From the UHGV virus genome UHGV-0003692: a stretch of DNA of 28,503 nucleotides; one strand, written 5' to 3'. Shown one piece after another: positions 3,381 through 24,768 of the stretch. Origin of the DNA: a virus. The notes beneath the pieces were generated by a model. The model was not told the DNA's origin, made no database searches, and was given only the letters and a program-made list of their open reading frames with translations. The position numbers were made by a program, and so were the translations under genes. Positions within the stretch are counted from its first letter, which is position 1, and every line of letters starts with the position of its first letter.

Positions 3381-3733
3381 TACGCCTCCGATGTAACAGT
3401 CGTTATTCCATAAAGAGTGTCGATTTCAGCGGAAAACATGACACGTCGGGTCGTGGTATCCACCGTCGTATTGAAAGAGAGGATTGATTTAACGCCCCGC
3501 GTTTCGAGGATGCGCTTACGGATCGCCAGGTTGTAGGTTTCCGGCTTCTGCTTACCGAGTACGGACTGGATCCACGGAGTCCCTTCGGTGGTATCGAGAA
3601 ACCATTGCCCATACCACAATTCGAATCGCGTTTTTACCGCCTGCGCCACGGCCTCCGGTGAGTTAATCAGCCAGGTGTCATCACCGCTGCCAAAGGTATA
3701 ATCGCCATCGGCGTCTTCACGTCTGTATCGCAT
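3380..3733 (-). CDS. Baseplate wedge protein (gpW/gp25-like position)
   Basis: 117-aa ORF between spike (V-like) and J-like genes, 1-nt start/stop overlaps on both sides. Confidence 0.45.
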   Translation of the reverse strand: MRYRREDADGDYTFGSGDDTWLINSPEAVAQAVKTRFELWYGQWFLDTTEGTPWIQSVLGKQKPETYNLAIRKRILETRGVKSILSFNTTVDTTTRRVMFSAEIDTLYGITTVTSEA

Positions 3734-4488
3734 CAGTTAGGCGCTCCTGTGTTACCGCCGCCGGTCTGTACTCCGCCGTGCGTGTGCGTCATCAGGCTCT
3801 TACCACCAGCTTTTACATCGTTAGTCACCGTGACAGGGCCAAGCATCGTCGCGGTGCCGCCGCTTTCGCCCATCCCCTGAGAGAGATTCCCGTTTATTGT
3901 CACGTTGCCGTTTAGCGTGATGGTGGGTGATGTGATCGTGGTTCCTCCTTCTGCTGTCGCCGTCAGCGCGCCGGGGGTTTTAACCGTGATGTTATGGCCT
4001 GCGGCAACTTCCACAAACGCAGCGCCATCATCAGTACGCAGTTGCGCGGCGCTGGTGCTGATTCCGCTGATTTTCTGCGCCTGAGACTGCGGACCGACGA
4101 TACAGAACGCATCCGATAAATCATGCATTCTGTCATCGACCGGTTCCTGTATTCCGCCGCTCTGCCACCAGAAATCAATACAACGATCGGCAAAAACAAC
4201 AAGACACTCATCCCCGGCTTTAATCGGAAACGTTAGCGTACATCCTCCGCCACGTGGGAATACCACTGGAACATCCACCAACAATGGGTAATTTTTGGTA
4301 ATGCGGTTGCCGTCATTATCCTTTTCAACCGAACGGATAGCAGGCTGCACAACCGCCGTCACCGCATCAGGATCGAATGACTGAATAATGCCAGGCAAGG
4401 CGACACGGATCTGATTCTTTGTTGTTTCCCGTTCAGATTTGAATGTTTCGGCAAGGTCGCCGCTGCGGGTCTGGTCAGATACTGCCAT
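3733..4488 (-). CDS. Baseplate spike / assembly protein V-like
   Basis: 251-aa ORF; Gly-rich C-terminus with ...MTHTHGGVQTGGGNTGAP typical of gpV-type spikes; ATG at 4488. Confidence 0.6.
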   Translation of the reverse strand: MAVSDQTRSGDLAETFKSERETTKNQIRVALPGIIQSFDPDAVTAVVQPAIRSVEKDNDGNRITKNYPLLVDVPVVFPRGGGCTLTFPIKAGDECLVVFADRCIDFWWQSGGIQEPVDDRMHDLSDAFCIVGPQSQAQKISGISTSAAQLRTDDGAAFVEVAAGHNITVKTPGALTATAEGGTTITSPTITLNGNVTINGNLSQGMGESGGTATMLGPVTVTNDVKAGGKSLMTHTHGGVQTGGGNTGAPN

Positions 4489-4507
4489 TTAGTAGGCTCC
4501 AGAAAGC

Positions 4508-4532
4508 AAAAAACCCGCCGGGTGGCGGGTTT
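4508..4532 (-). terminator. Intrinsic terminator closing the moron cassette
   Basis: Minus strand reads AAACCCGCC-ACCC-GGCGGG followed by TTTTTT; GC-rich stem with U-tract, overlapping the stop of the upstream gene. Confidence 0.7.
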
Positions 4533-4947
4533 ATGAATCGTAGGTTTTCAATTTTTCGAGTTCATCAGGAGGAAGTTCTATGAAGGTTTCCTCTGCTAAT
4601 TTTATCAGCCGGGGAAGCATCGAATCAGCTTGCTGATGAGCGTTTGGGCTGATGATTGCCAATATCTGATAGTGTTCATCGATATAAAGATGCTGAGCAT
4701 ATACCAAAAAATTATCACATGTCCGTTCACTCAGAGATGCTTCTGGAGGCCAGGGTTTATCGCCAGGTAGCTTTAAGTGAATTTTCCTGATGTTGGCAGC
4801 CATCGCATCATAGTTACGTTCAAAACCGCCTAACGAACCAAAACACCAGAACTGGGAACCCTTTGAAATATAATCGGCAAGCATTTGAGCATACTTATGT
4901 GCTGCAGCTAAATGACGCAATTCTCCCGTGATACTGACTTTTGCCAT
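4531..4947 (-). CDS. YafO-family toxin-like protein (putative type II toxin, mRNA interferase family)
   Basis: 138-aa ORF, ATG at 4947, 1 nt after the upstream stop. Shares motifs along its length with E. coli YafO as I recall it (ADYIS vs ADFISY; IHL...P.PP; LVYAQ...DE...ILAII.P..H vs LVYCQ...DE...LIAIL.P..H). Gene region visibly AT-richer than flanking tail genes. Confidence 0.55.
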   Translation of the reverse strand: MAKVSITGELRHLAAAHKYAQMLADYISKGSQFWCFGSLGGFERNYDAMAANIRKIHLKLPGDKPWPPEASLSERTCDNFLVYAQHLYIDEHYQILAIISPNAHQQADSMLPRLIKLAEETFIELPPDELEKLKTYDS

Positions 4948-4948
4948 G

Positions 4949-5521
4949 TCACATCCATTTAGGGGCGTTGGCTCCCAGCATCTTATGCGATGTTGAGATC
5001 AGTTCAATAGCCTCTTCACGGGTAACATTATCTGACAAGAGCTCAGCCTGGAAAGGCTGCGATTGCCTAACTTCAGCGGCCAACTGAGTTGCAGTGTTCT
5101 CGACGGCGGTCAACGCACGAACATATTTGCGTTTTAATGGGCGCAACATTTGCAGATGGCCTTGCCACATAGGGGACCTTTCCGCTTCAGAGAACATATC
5201 CACTAAATGTCCTTTAGCATTTCGGCATGCCTTGGCAAGACCTTCGAGATGGGATAAAAACTCTTCCGGAAGCTCATCAACAATGATTCTCCCATTTCGA
5301 AAAGCTTCGAGATGAGACATGCCTTCCTTCGCGGTATTTTCGATTTCTTGAGCGCGTGCAGCAATCGCGGTACAACGACGAAATACCTCTTCAGCATCTA
5401 ATCGTTGTGGCAGTTCACAAGCATTAGAGATCAGGGGTTTGAAAGCACCGTTAACAGCTTCCTGAACCTGATTCATTTGTTGTGTAATTGTTGCCAGCGC
5501 AAATGCGTAGCTAATCGCCAT
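4949..5521 (-). CDS. Hypothetical protein, putative partner/antitoxin of the YafO-like gene
   Basis: Track ORF begins with TTG at 5527; first ATG at 5521 is preceded by GAGGG at good spacing (190 aa from ATG). Predicted helical, no family recognised; stop is 1 nt before the downstream ATG. Confidence 0.5.
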   Translation of the reverse strand: MAISYAFALATITQQMNQVQEAVNGAFKPLISNACELPQRLDAEEVFRRCTAIAARAQEIENTAKEGMSHLEAFRNGRIIVDELPEEFLSHLEGLAKACRNAKGHLVDMFSEAERSPMWQGHLQMLRPLKRKYVRALTAVENTATQLAAEVRQSQPFQAELLSDNVTREEAIELISTSHKMLGANAPKWM

Positions 5522-5534
5522 ACCCAATCCCTCT

Positions 5535-5613
5535 GTCGTTTTAAACGACTATACACCACTTATTCAAAGTTAGCTGAGCGCTAAAAGTTCGCAAAGTTTA
5601 GTGATCATGCAAC
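5535..5613 (-). promoter_or_regulatory. Candidate promoter and palindromic operator for the two-gene cassette
   Basis: In a 162-bp AT-rich gap: minus-strand TTGCTA (5608-5613), 17-bp spacer, TAAACT (5585-5590); 15-bp palindrome GTCGTTT-A-AAACGAC at 5535-5549 just upstream of the ribosome-binding site; three AACTTT direct repeats. Confidence 0.35.
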
Positions 5614-5689
5614 CACCTAGCAAGCGATAAAAAATCATTATTTAGTGAATGTGAACAAACTCAACACTATGCAGAAATGTAACTTTTGG

Positions 5690-6031
5690 TTAACCATCAA
5701 CCTTTTTACACGGGAAGGAGCCGATGATTTTCGGCGCATCCATGCTGTTCTGCAGCAGTTGCACATTCAGGAATCGCGTTTCGGTACCAGGGCGACGAAT
5801 GTATTCAAACCCATAGTTGTTGCCATCTTTAGCAGGCATCAGTCCCATATCTATCTTAATGCCATCAGCACCAAGATTTGTAATTTTCTGCGATGTGACG
5901 CGCTCACCGTTAATCATGTCCATTTCACCCAACCTTGCAGTGATGGTGTAAGGCCCACAATAAGCGGTGTACCCGCTTGCTGATGCCCCAAATGACATAA
6001 AGGCAACAATTAAAATGGCTAAGGCTTTCAA
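5690..6031 (-). CDS. Small secreted protein with N-terminal signal peptide (moron)
   Basis: 113-aa ORF; N-terminus MKALAILIVAFMSFGASA then SG (signal-peptidase I-like). Start is TTG at 6031, preceded by GGGGG ribosome-binding site; no in-frame ATG preserves the signal peptide. Begins 2 nt after the upstream baseplate gene. Confidence 0.5.
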   Translation of the reverse strand: MKALAILIVAFMSFGASASGYTAYCGPYTITARLGEMDMINGERVTSQKITNLGADGIKIDMGLMPAKDGNNYGFEYIRRPGTETRFLNVQLLQNSMDAPKIIGSFPCKKVDG

Positions 6032-6033
6032 AT

Positions 6034-7095
6034 TTACCCCCGATTAAGCGAGTCCTGCGTGCGGAGATCCGCCGCGCCACGCGCTTCGCACATCATATCC
6101 ATGTACCACGCCTGGCCCCTTGTGTCGCCAGTGTACATAATCCCGCGCACAATATAAACGCCATCCGTTGCGATGCTGGCAGGCTGCGCCGTGGTGCCGC
6201 TGAGCGTGATATTTCCGTCTGTGTTCTGGTCGGTGATCTGCCCACCAGCCATCGCGATATCATTGTTCGACAGCGCGGTGCGGTACACGGAAGCCTGATC
6301 CAGCTGAATAAGCCCGTTAACCCGGATGTTCGGATTAATAAGAGCGCGGACGTTTACGCCGTTACCGATAGTCTGCTGCGGCATGCCGATAAGCCCGGTG
6401 GCGCTGTTGAGCACAATCGCGTCGTGAACATACTCGTTATTCGCCACCATCTGGCGCTGACCGTCCACAAATTGCCATGTTGCGCCACATTGTCCGGCCA
6501 CGTTATCCATAAGATGCCGTGTCATGCCGAACAGCACCCGCCCTCGAGGGTATACGGTAGCAGGCATTTCAGGCGTCAGTCCTTCGGTCGCGCCTTTGGC
6601 CTCAAAGTCTTTCATCAGCGCACGGTTCACATCTGCGACTGTGTAACCGGCAGCCAGCGTCTGTGAGGTTATACTGGTGGCAAATGCCAGATCAGTATCT
6701 GCTGCCTGAATCAGGACGTAGGTATCAACCGGACTGTCTTTTCCTGTGACCGAGTAGCGAATTTCTCCGCTGAAAATCAGCCCGTAGTTGCGGCCATCAC
6801 TCTGGCCCACGTCCGCCGCGTCAACTTCCCGCACAGTCCCGACGTCGCTTGCTGCCACCTCCGGCGCGATACCGTCGTAACCGGCAATCAGCCGCACTTT
6901 CGAAAACTCCTGCCCGGTAATTCGGTTCACAGTATCTGCCGAAAGGTTATAAATTTTGATAGTCCCTACCCGGGACGCGCTGCTGATGTTGAACCAGTCG
7001 ATCGTAAAGGTGACTTTGAAATCACTTAGCTCAATTCCCTTACCGTTCCCGTCCACAAGCTGCAGCTCGAAATGTCTCATCCAGTTCTGTGACAT
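6034..7095 (-). CDS. Baseplate hub / tail protein (P2 gpD / Mu gp44-like position)
   Basis: 353-aa ORF downstream of tape measure and two small tail genes; ATG at 7095; assignment by synteny and size. Confidence 0.45.
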   Translation of the reverse strand: MSQNWMRHFELQLVDGNGKGIELSDFKVTFTIDWFNISSASRVGTIKIYNLSADTVNRITGQEFSKVRLIAGYDGIAPEVAASDVGTVREVDAADVGQSDGRNYGLIFSGEIRYSVTGKDSPVDTYVLIQAADTDLAFATSITSQTLAAGYTVADVNRALMKDFEAKGATEGLTPEMPATVYPRGRVLFGMTRHLMDNVAGQCGATWQFVDGQRQMVANNEYVHDAIVLNSATGLIGMPQQTIGNGVNVRALINPNIRVNGLIQLDQASVYRTALSNNDIAMAGGQITDQNTDGNITLSGTTAQPASIATDGVYIVRGIMYTGDTRGQAWYMDMMCEARGAADLRTQDSLNRG

Positions 7096-21573: not shown

Positions 21574-21837
21574 CTACTTCACTTTTGCTTTTGCTTCCGC
21601 TCGCTTACGCCGGCGCTCTTCTTTCCTCTCGGCTTTTGCCATGTCCATGAATGCCTGCATGATCGAGTTCCGCATCATGTAGCTAACAAAGTGATGATTG
21701 ACACAGCCGTTGAGGCGCAGCTGCTCGCCAAACTCATCCACCGAGGCCAATGCTTCCATCATGCCCTTCTCGCCTTTCATGAACTCTGAGAAGTCGCGCC
21801 CCGCTCTGGAGGCGCATTCAATGACACGATCACTCAT
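21574..21837 (-). CDS. Hypothetical protein with basic C-terminal tail
   Basis: 87-aa ORF; ATG at 21837 overlaps the upstream stop (ATGA); C-terminus ERKEERRRKRAEAKAKVK. Confidence 0.4.
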   Translation of the reverse strand: MSDRVIECASRAGRDFSEFMKGEKGMMEALASVDEFGEQLRLNGCVNHHFVSYMMRNSIMQAFMDMAKAERKEERRRKRAEAKAKVK

Positions 21838-22331
21838 CCCGGAAGCCCGGGGATCGTAATCTGCAGCTGGTTAGCCAGGGAGTTAATCTCAGCGACCAAC
21901 ACTGGCTTCGTATAGCGCCATGCCGCCAGCCCTTGTCCGCAGAAGCTCGCCATGTCTTTCTTCTGGTCAAACTCATGACATTTCATGTTGAGCTGCGCAC
22001 TTAAGCTGTTGCGATGCTGAAGTTCTCCGGTGAAGTAGTCATCGAGGACTTTATAAGCCGCGTACTTGAACCCGGGGTTTAACCAAGCCGCATAATCGTA
22101 AGCAACAAACTTCCCGCCATATGTTCCACCGTGTACACCGCGCTCAGTAAAAACCACAGATTCGTGGTTTTTCTCCAGCTCGGCTAAGAACTCTTTGGTC
22201 TGCTTGTTTCGCAGGTAGTGGTAAGGCGATTCAGATTCACTTTTACCACTGGCTTTCCACATATCAGTGAGGCAGATCATGCCATCTTCACCGATACGAA
22301 TTGGTTGATTGAAGAGGGTTAATGATTTCAT
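21834..22331 (-). CDS. KilA-N domain-like protein (candidate)
   Basis: 165-aa ORF between the lysis cassette and terminase; N-terminal region (FNQPIRIGEDGMICLTDMWKASGK...) resembles KilA-N/Bro-N type domains by recollection. Confidence 0.4.
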   Translation of the reverse strand: MKSLTLFNQPIRIGEDGMICLTDMWKASGKSESESPYHYLRNKQTKEFLAELEKNHESVVFTERGVHGGTYGGKFVAYDYAAWLNPGFKYAAYKVLDDYFTGELQHRNSLSAQLNMKCHEFDQKKDMASFCGQGLAAWRYTKPVLVAEINSLANQLQITIPGLPG

Positions 22332-24249: not shown

Positions 24250-24768
24250 CTAAATGGCTAATTGCATGTCAAGGCTTTTAACAGCAACATGCTTAACTTT
24301 CTCAACACGTTTACGCATTTTGAAAGCGTTTTGCATTGGCTGGTACAAAACAAATAACGACGCTTTCAGGATGTCGTCAATTTCGTTTCTACAGGTTGCC
24401 AGTGAAGGTTTTCTCCATCCCTCACCACCACGTCCACACATCTTGCGTGGCTTTGCAGTCGCGTGATAGTAGGATGCAATTGCTCGCTTAGATGAACCAT
24501 GAGCGTAGTAGCTGAGGAGGATGCCAAAGGCTTTCTTGTCAATGTACATGACGGAATCGACGACCTGAGAAATCAACATTCCATCATCATCATTGCACAT
24601 TGGCCTTGTCATAACTCTTCCCGGCTCTACGCTCTCCATGAACTTCGCTATTACGCTGCTCATGCGCTTTTCCAGACGACCTGAATAAACCCATGCGCCC
24701 CACAGTTCAAGCCAGCCATTCAGCCACTCGTGCTGCTCTTTGGTGAGGTTTAGTTCTCTTATGCCCAC
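24250..24768 (-). CDS. Q: Late-gene antiterminator Q (phage 82/21-type family)
   Basis: 172-aa ORF upstream of the lysis cassette; shares LE.WGAW and RP.C.DDD motifs with 82/21-type Q proteins as recalled. Start is GTG at 24768 with GGGAGAAGG ribosome-binding site; first in-frame ATG would delete the conserved N-terminus. Confidence 0.6.

Follow-up and report, generated by a model that had tools for sequence, protein, structure and literature searches.

What is an AT-rich block of genes doing in the middle of a phage baseplate operon? The question is raised by the virus genome UHGV-0003692, a stretch of 28,503 nucleotides (the window) in which an initial annotation, made from the letters alone, had marked a lower-GC insertion of three genes between two baseplate genes, the last of them encoding a YafO-like toxin and the one before it a tightly coupled partner of no recognised family. 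The analysis reported here indicates that positions 4532–5689 are probably a mobile two-gene type II toxin-antitoxin cassette carried as a moron, in which the toxin is accompanied by a dedicated antitoxin of an undescribed family. The coordinates of this cassette, of its parts, and of its neighbours are collected in Table 1.

The nearest sequenced phages are Salmonella phage SEN34 (Brunovirus), Escherichia phages vB_EcoM-689R2, 606R2, and 611R5, and Yersinia phage YP3. The block does contain three co-directional open reading frames on the minus strand between the hub and spike genes, but the unit that moves is made up of two of them. In blastn comparisons with SEN34, vB_EcoM-689R2, and YP3, homology broke at 4531/4532 and at 5689/5690, and because the second breakpoint falls exactly at the stop codon of the first gene of the block, which encodes a 113-residue protein and stays beside the hub gene whatever the cargo, the cargo is two genes rather than three. 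The reported AT-richness is real: the GC content of 4532–5689 is 44.1%, whereas the hub gene stands at 55.7% and the spike gene at 54.4%, and no other 1158-bp segment across the 28.5 kb is as low (lowest 0.2%). Among 5426 complete Escherichia coli genomes, 37 carried the cassette, at no less than 98.4% identity, and the flanks were present in 248–316. Most related prophages had no YafO cassette and otherwise the same baseplate genes, so the presence of the insert varies where its neighbours are conserved, and the pair is no conserved structural part of the tail module. Breakpoints, composition, and presence or absence among relatives thus bear out the description of the insert as a low-GC moron in the baseplate cluster. 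In E. coli TUM1880 (CP135706.1, locus L032), an insertion sequence (IS) gene for a DDE transposase lies at the position of the sheath gene, with the YafO cassette and the baseplate genes left intact; the prophage, though defective, retains the cassette.

The site itself is a hotspot for cargo. Among relatives, the slot between the gene for the 113-residue protein (STY1065 family) and the spike gene (window 4489–5689) held at least seven unrelated cargos: the YafO pair of this window, a 79-residue DUF4282 membrane protein, a pair of 256 and 131 residues in enteropathogenic E. coli (EPEC) E2348/69, a 257-residue protein, a 170-residue protein in vB_EcoM-689R2, a 138-residue membrane-anchored protein in SEN34, and a 266-residue protein in YP3. 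Scans of the other cargos with PADLOC and Pfam returned DUF4282 for one and an insignificant HEPN_IX match for another. The latter is the 131-residue EPEC protein (E 0.009, not significant); the 170-residue protein of vB_EcoM-689R2 has an RNNLFH (Rx4H) motif as in HEPN RNases, again not significant.

The claim of a toxin-antitoxin-like pair found strong support in comparative data, both in the pairing of the two genes and in their co-divergence. In the window, the partner gene lies upstream and a single base separates its TGA from the ATG of the toxin gene. Every partner homolog inspected lay directly upstream of a PF13957 gene, with a spacing of −1 to +2 nucleotides, in prophages of Pantoea, Klebsiella, Leclercia, and Serratia, in the Flyfo siphovirus, and in metagenomic contigs. 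Even the remotest homologs (P0072 and P0073, E ~1e-4) preceded a YafO-family gene, one of these two in a non-phage locus with a transposase. In IMG/VR, 45 of 46 loci showed a partner of 190–193 residues, a 1-nucleotide gap, and a toxin of 137–138 residues; in the exception, IMGVR_UViG_2875262337_000001 (L079), no intact pair was read from the matched start, the partner match being 44% identical and its frame ending after 80 codons, which could reflect a decayed copy or a wrongly chosen start. A profile search of 1.84 billion representatives found no relatives of the partner outside YafO-linked proteins. Pairwise identities of toxin and partner were closely correlated (r = 0.95), with the partner the more diverged protein in 35 of 36 comparisons (in the Serratia copies the toxin is 49% identical and the partner 35%), and such faster divergence is as expected of antitoxins.

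This linked pair has travelled widely. Clustering of the flanks placed the cassette in at least eight contexts, including the hub-to-spike slot (27 loci, among them copies whose partner is just 62–65% identical to that of the window), siphovirus tail modules, on one side or the other of the tape measure gene, a second type of myovirus baseplate in which the copy comes right after a spike-like gene (L056), the lambdoid nin region, and a non-phage site. The cassette is obligately paired, co-diverging, mobile, and of deviant composition. In several other phages (L060, L062, L006, L005, and L009), small genes for signal-peptide or lipoprotein-like products follow the cassette, one of them with a BamE-like domain, which suggests clusters of lysogenic-conversion morons.

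The 138-residue protein was likened to YafO toxins along its length, and a profile search agrees: it matches Pfam PF13957 at 62.6 bits (threshold 25, E 4e-17) over profile positions 12–98 of 101, and near-identical E. coli proteins are labelled ‘YafO family toxin’ by the Prokaryotic Genome Annotation Pipeline (PGAP). It is 25% identical to K-12 YafO and falls below the cut-off of the NCBIfam equivalog for that protein, NF007377 (31.4 against 153 bits); judged by sequence, it is a member of the YafO family and not the ortholog of K-12 YafO. Five residues (H57, R75, P101, H104, and E119) are invariant across its clade and K-12 YafO, and the clade has a 16-residue C-terminal extension relative to the K-12 protein. 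An AlphaFold model built from 25 sequences was confident, with a predicted local distance difference test (pLDDT) score of 94.9, and was likened to the HigB, YafQ, and RelE RNases, so that a RelE/BECR-type fold is predicted. A Foldseek comparison of this model with known structures gave nothing significant, no match to the RelE, HigB, or YafQ families was found at the sequence level, and the PDB holds no structure of a YafO-family protein.

The partner is the new component. Its start is the ATG at 5521 rather than the TTG at 5527, since its homologs all begin with MAIS or MSIG. As had been suspected, it is unlike YafN and other Phd-type antitoxins: it belongs to no Pfam, NCBIfam, or PADLOC family, shows no match to PF02604 at E values up to 1, and gave no BLASTP match to YafN, and Pfam scores K-12 YafN at 31.5 bits (Phd/YefM). 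Matches in curated libraries to EAD5 (E 0.0033), to DinG, and to Cas7 (PADLOC, E 0.019) were at chance level and were set aside. Searches of the PDB by sequence, with the single protein and with a profile, returned nothing under E 0.03. The AlphaFold2 model (pLDDT 78.7) is all-helical and has no strands, with four long helices (residues 3–31, 43–75, 86–115, and 123–154), a disordered linker (155–167), a further helix (168–181), and then a conserved tail. Against known structures in Foldseek it matched only generic helical bundles (E at least 0.1, TM-score no higher than 0.48); a HepT/HEPN toxin identity raised by weak matches of this kind was rejected because the protein has no Rx4-6H motif. 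The positions that stay invariant out to the remotest homologs are W119, M125, L137, I175, S178, H179, and W189, and the conserved core, judged by this pattern, is the C-terminal segment of helix and tail (I175, S178, H179, and W189). Standing behind a disordered linker, that segment is the likeliest toxin-binding element of the protein.

The partner family is very small, and its members come from Enterobacterales and close relatives only. It comprises 34 clusters at 90% identity, and it accounted for 14 matches in the profile search of representatives, 3 of 185,579 species-representative genomes, and 1 of 50,697 phage records; in assemblies, the E. coli protein is nevertheless frequent. A literature search found no paper describing it, and the family is novel.

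The downstream edge of the cassette is a terminator. The strong terminator of the initial annotation was confirmed as a hairpin with a T-run, but it is not private to this cassette, as the same hairpin accompanies other cargos. It has the form AACCCGCC-ACCC-GGCGGG, with nine pairs of which six are G-C, followed by T6GCTTTCT, and its fold energy is −15.6 kcal/mol. YP3 apart, the spike gene is preceded by this hairpin whatever the cargo, and the same terminator, including the GCTTTCT tail, follows the toxin gene in the Flyfo siphovirus, a Klebsiella lambdoid prophage, and Serratia siphoviruses (loci L009, L011, L012–L016, L022, and L071–L072). It is a real, conserved RNA hairpin, because its stem shows compensating changes (CCGCC/GGCGG against CCACC/GGUGG) as well as G-U wobbles and every copy still folds; the copies were folded one by one, the MAFFT alignment having put the stems out of register for column-wise pair counts. 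An Rfam search of 4300–6200 returned a chance match on the terminator and nothing else. The hairpin appears to be the fixed shared edge of the cargo hotspot, and plausibly provides the homology through which cargos are exchanged. Its position midway in a late operon also fits the Q antiterminator that the same prophage encodes.

At the upstream end, the leader carries signals that are partly conserved. In all 45 of the 45 viral cassettes, a −10-like hexamer, TACACT or TAAACT, precedes the partner ATG by 77–84 nucleotides, and in other cassettes it is part of a conserved promoter-like TTGAAG-17-TACACT. Two short repeats, at 5535–5549 and 5570–5584, were read by eye from the sequence, as an automated repeat search missed such short palindromes. 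The second, a candidate operator or RNA hairpin, is kept as TTAGC-N5-GCTAA in Klebsiella and Leclercia, and in the Flyfo phage it reads CTAGC-N5-GCTAG, a symmetric change. Of the promoter and palindrome that had been assigned to the block, the palindrome is present and the promoter is a candidate. In Serratia (L012–L016), in Pantoea (L005/L023), and in L006, a terminator-like hairpin with a U-run separates the −10-like hexamer from the Shine-Dalgarno sequence of the partner gene, suggesting attenuation in the leader of these variants; the E. coli copy has no equivalent of it. Structure in the leader of the E. coli copy was considered and then set aside, as this leader showed no extra stability and the five-sequence consensus had a positive covariation term.

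Taken as a toxin-antitoxin pair, the cassette might work as follows. In a lysogen, the two genes would be transcribed from their own leader promoter, about 80 nucleotides upstream, and transcription would end at the hairpin at 4511–4532, leaving the spike gene silent. Translation of the toxin would be coupled to that of the partner across the 1-nucleotide gap. The partner, all-helical and encoded first, would act as the antitoxin, probably by binding through its C-terminal helix and tail; we infer neutralisation from gene order and co-evolution. Toxin set free, predicted to be a YafO-family endoribonuclease of the RelE/HigB type, would cut mRNA and so stop translation. During lytic growth, polymerase modified by Q might read through the terminator, as is known of lambda Q. 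The host may gain from the pair through exclusion of other phages or retention of the prophage, or may gain nothing.

Several points weigh against this account. The evidence for neutralisation consists only of gene order and co-evolution. The partner is twice the size of a usual type II antitoxin, and no DNA-binding domain or fold is recognisable in it by library scans such as Pfam, in its AlphaFold2 model, or by Foldseek, so that classic autoregulation is unsupported and a role of the leader repeats as operators is conjectural. To our knowledge, YafO has no defined catalytic residues, so the sequence gives no means of judging activity. No model of a known defence system in PADLOC-DB 2.0 matched either protein. 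Folding of the leader RNA was no better than that of shuffled sequences (z = 0.81). As to the promoter, a generic scan found four sites where 4.1 were expected from shuffled sequence, which is chance level, and the candidate P2, at 8 of 12 matches, falls under the threshold of the scan and is weak evidence. The E. coli cassette also has an 11-bp deletion in an otherwise conserved promoter region, and because this deletion leaves TTGCTA-17-TAAACT in place, P2 is the best remaining candidate for a promoter in use. Seen against L011, L021, and L022, the deletion (window 5595–5625, some 80–110 nucleotides ahead of the partner ATG) removes a conserved GGTAATACACT element and alters the promoter geometry; it is presumably common to all 37 E. 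coli genome copies, given their identity of at least 98.4%.

How the pair serves its carrier can be read in two ways, each held tentatively and each, on our estimate, somewhat unlikely taken singly. It may be a new abortive-infection or superinfection-exclusion system, in which the helical bundle of the partner would act as a sensor that a component of an incoming phage binds or destabilises, releasing the RNase; the slot would then be a defence hotspot of SEN34/E217-like prophages, and its shared terminator the recombination junction at which cargos are swapped. With much the same tentativeness, the pair may be a purely selfish, prophage-stabilising addiction module with no role against other phages, in which a stable toxin would outlast a labile partner and kill cells that lose or inactivate the prophage segment. 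The classic type II layout, the intact cassette beside the IS-interrupted sheath region of L032, the lack of a match of either protein to a known defence model, and the movement of the cassette among many unrelated elements, as selfish modules move, are in keeping with addiction. However, the other small cargos of the slot, whose functions are unknown, fit a hotspot for lysogen benefit equally well, and the data do not separate addiction from defence, which can also hold together.

The size of the partner and its lack of any antitoxin or DNA-binding signature also invite an improbable third reading, in which it is a cofactor, regulator, or specificity subunit of a YafO-like RNase, the two forming an enzyme for the benefit of the phage that might, for example, halt translation in the host or take part in RNA processing late in infection. 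Both genes do lie within a late operon that Q-modified polymerase would transcribe, and obligate pairing and co-divergence would suit any stable heteromer. Yet the gene order, the 1-nucleotide coupling, and an upstream protein that diverges faster make up the pattern of type II antitoxins, and the cassette is not tied to late functions, being found also in the lambdoid early (nin) region and at a non-phage locus; it is dispensable as well, most related prophages having none.

Its place between hub and spike genes, a further copy that directly follows a spike-like gene in another myovirus (L056), and a YafO-like gene noted as cargo in a Pseudomonas R-tailocin cluster (PMC4684702) might suggest a structural or injected tail cargo, with the toxin delivered to target cells in the style of effectors of type VI secretion systems (T6SS) or tailocins and the partner serving as immunity protein or chaperone. 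This is very improbable, as the same cassette occurs at varied positions in siphovirus tail modules, in the nin region, and at a non-phage site, is missing from most relatives that have the same baseplate genes, appears to have its own transcription signals, and shows no hint of an attachment or packaging domain.

The gene for the 113-residue protein is best regarded as conserved phage backbone and not as cargo, because it is found after the hub gene with every alternative cargo. It followed the hub gene in every relative examined, whatever gene came next, with copies 64–96% identical directly after the hub gene in SEN34, vB_EcoM-689R2, YP3, and E. coli prophages with different cargos. A Sec-type signal peptide, MKALAILIVAFMSFGASASG, was read from the sequence, together with two conserved cysteines; the product would be a secreted protein encoded inside the baseplate operon of SEN34/E217-like phages. 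That the secreted protein acts with the pair in a true three-gene unit is scarcely credible: the three genes are adjacent and run in the same direction, and the GC content of this one (46.2%) is also under that of neighbouring genes, but it occurs with every alternative cargo, the pair goes without it in all other contexts, and homology with relatives ends precisely at its stop codon.

The window as a whole is most of a temperate, contractile-tailed prophage with every gene on the minus strand. Early and regulatory functions are represented by a Dam methylase, YbcO, RusA, a phosphoesterase, and a lambda-type Q antiterminator, and lysis and packaging by a holin, Rz, a KilA-N gene, and the small terminase subunit. 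The tail genes encode the sheath (DUF3383), tube, tail chaperone, tape measure, a Dit-like protein, the baseplate plug, hub, spike, sheath initiator, baseplate J, DUF2612, a fibre, and a fibre chaperone. The hub protein scored 24.6 bits against Pfam E217_GP41, slightly under the cut-off of 27. Near-identical prophage copies are present in E. coli chromosomes, and the carrier is an E. coli temperate myovirus of the SEN34/E217 type. Two further places in the window stood out. The KilA-N gene is bordered by unusually long intergenic gaps and is another possible accessory insertion, and at the left end, beyond the tail-fibre assembly gene, GC content drops to 37.8% within positions 1–400, which may mark the prophage end or an additional accessory region.

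Table 1. Features of the cassette, its leader, and its surroundings in the 28,503-nucleotide window.
Feature	Position	Strand	Basis and remarks
Mobile cargo (moron): leader, partner gene, and toxin gene	4532-5689	-	Homology breakpoints, GC content, presence/absence
YafO-family toxin gene, 138 residues, RelE/HigB-like fold (predicted)	4531-4947	-	Pfam PF13957
Partner gene, putative antitoxin of undescribed family, 190 residues	4949-5521	-	PHROG 35514, function unknown (only family matched)
Palindrome GTCGTTTAAAACGAC	5535-5549	-	Just upstream of Shine-Dalgarno GAGGG (5533-5529); kept in related cassettes
Inverted repeat TTAGC-N5-GCTAA, candidate operator or RNA hairpin	5570-5584	-	In the leader
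Candidate promoter P2: TTGCTA (5623-5618), 17-nucleotide spacer, TAAACT (5600-5595)	5595-5623	-	8/12 matches, read from sequence
Alternative promoter-like site P1: TTGAGT-16-AATAAT	5637-5664	-	Scan match 9/12; weak support
Intrinsic terminator (hairpin 4511-4532, T-rich tail 4501-4510)	4501-4532	-	Directly before the GGAG ribosome-binding site of the spike gene
Secreted protein, 113 residues, STY1065/STY2022 family (PGAP)	5690-6031	-	PHROG 3443, function unknown; outside the cassette
Baseplate hub gene, upstream flank of the hotspot	6034-7095	-	PHROG 196 ‘baseplate hub’, E 1.9e-89
Membrane-puncturing spike gene, downstream flank of the hotspot	3733-4488	-	Pfam PF18352, 150 bits, and GpV Apex motif, 32.9 bits
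Q antiterminator gene, lambda-type	24250-24768	-	Pfam Phage_antitermQ, 90.3 bits (cut-off 26)
KilA-N / ORF11CD3 domain gene	21834-22331	-	Between lysis genes and small terminase subunit

Comparison with characterised systems shows which parts of the cassette are familiar. The closest is YafN-YafO, found in the dinB operon of E. coli K-12, whose toxin is in the same Pfam family and has the five invariant residues in common; the order reported for this family, antitoxin then toxin with nearly abutting genes (PMC11980606), is also that of the cassette. K-12 YafO is reported to be an mRNA endonuclease, although its ribosome dependence is now questioned (PMC8546651). The two pairs differ in their first component, YafN having 97 residues and a PhdYeFM match in Pfam and the partner having 190, being predicted to be all-helical, and being unrelated to it; they also differ in location, as the K-12 pair belongs to an SOS operon and the cassette is phage-borne. 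From RelBE, HigBA, and DinJ-YafQ the toxin is set apart by the lack of a sequence-level match and of a significant Foldseek match, and the partner by the lack of a detectable counterpart to the ribbon-helix-helix (RHH), helix-turn-helix (HTH), or Phd-type DNA-binding domains of their antitoxins.

The swapping of antitoxins is known in type II systems, where the Panacea domain (PanA, DUF4065) pairs with many toxin families. The cassette resembles that theme in that one toxin family goes with unrelated antitoxin families and in that the antitoxin is compact and helical and such systems are often associated with phages. Unlike Panacea, the partner showed no match to DUF4065 or to any other domain in a Pfam scan, and as far as has been seen it is monogamous, each homolog being found with a YafO-family toxin. 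Phage morons such as lambda bor and lom and those of HK97 have their own promoter and terminator and a deviant composition. The cassette shares with them its insertion between two late-operon genes, its presence/absence polymorphism, its lower GC content relative to the flanks, the terminator at its downstream end, and the candidate promoter upstream; it differs in that its terminator is a common junction, one that other cargos of the slot also have and that travels with the cassette into unrelated phages.

YafO toxins with no named antitoxin have been met before. Pseudomonas prophages have been annotated with a YafO toxin in this way (PMC10449497), and a survey of E. coli found six YafO toxin clusters and 13 partner clusters, only 8% of the partners being known antitoxins (PMC10790755). 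These reports of ‘orphan’ toxins defined no partner family, whereas here one is delimited and strictly linked to a clade of YafO. The family supplies an annotation rule for such toxins and a clean pair for experiments, and solving the structure of the toxin-partner complex would close a gap in what is known of the RelE/ParE superfamily. Also brought to light is a cargo hotspot in a group of prophages common in E. coli and Salmonella; should the pair or its slot neighbours shield lysogens against other phages, new defence genes could be sought there, and if the pair is an addiction module only, it extends the known diversity of toxin-antitoxin systems modestly. Set beside the systems above, the toxin family and the standard layout of the cassette are known and the antitoxin-like partner family alone is new; antitoxin replacement is a familiar theme, of which this pair is a clean, experimentally tractable, and structurally uncharted instance.

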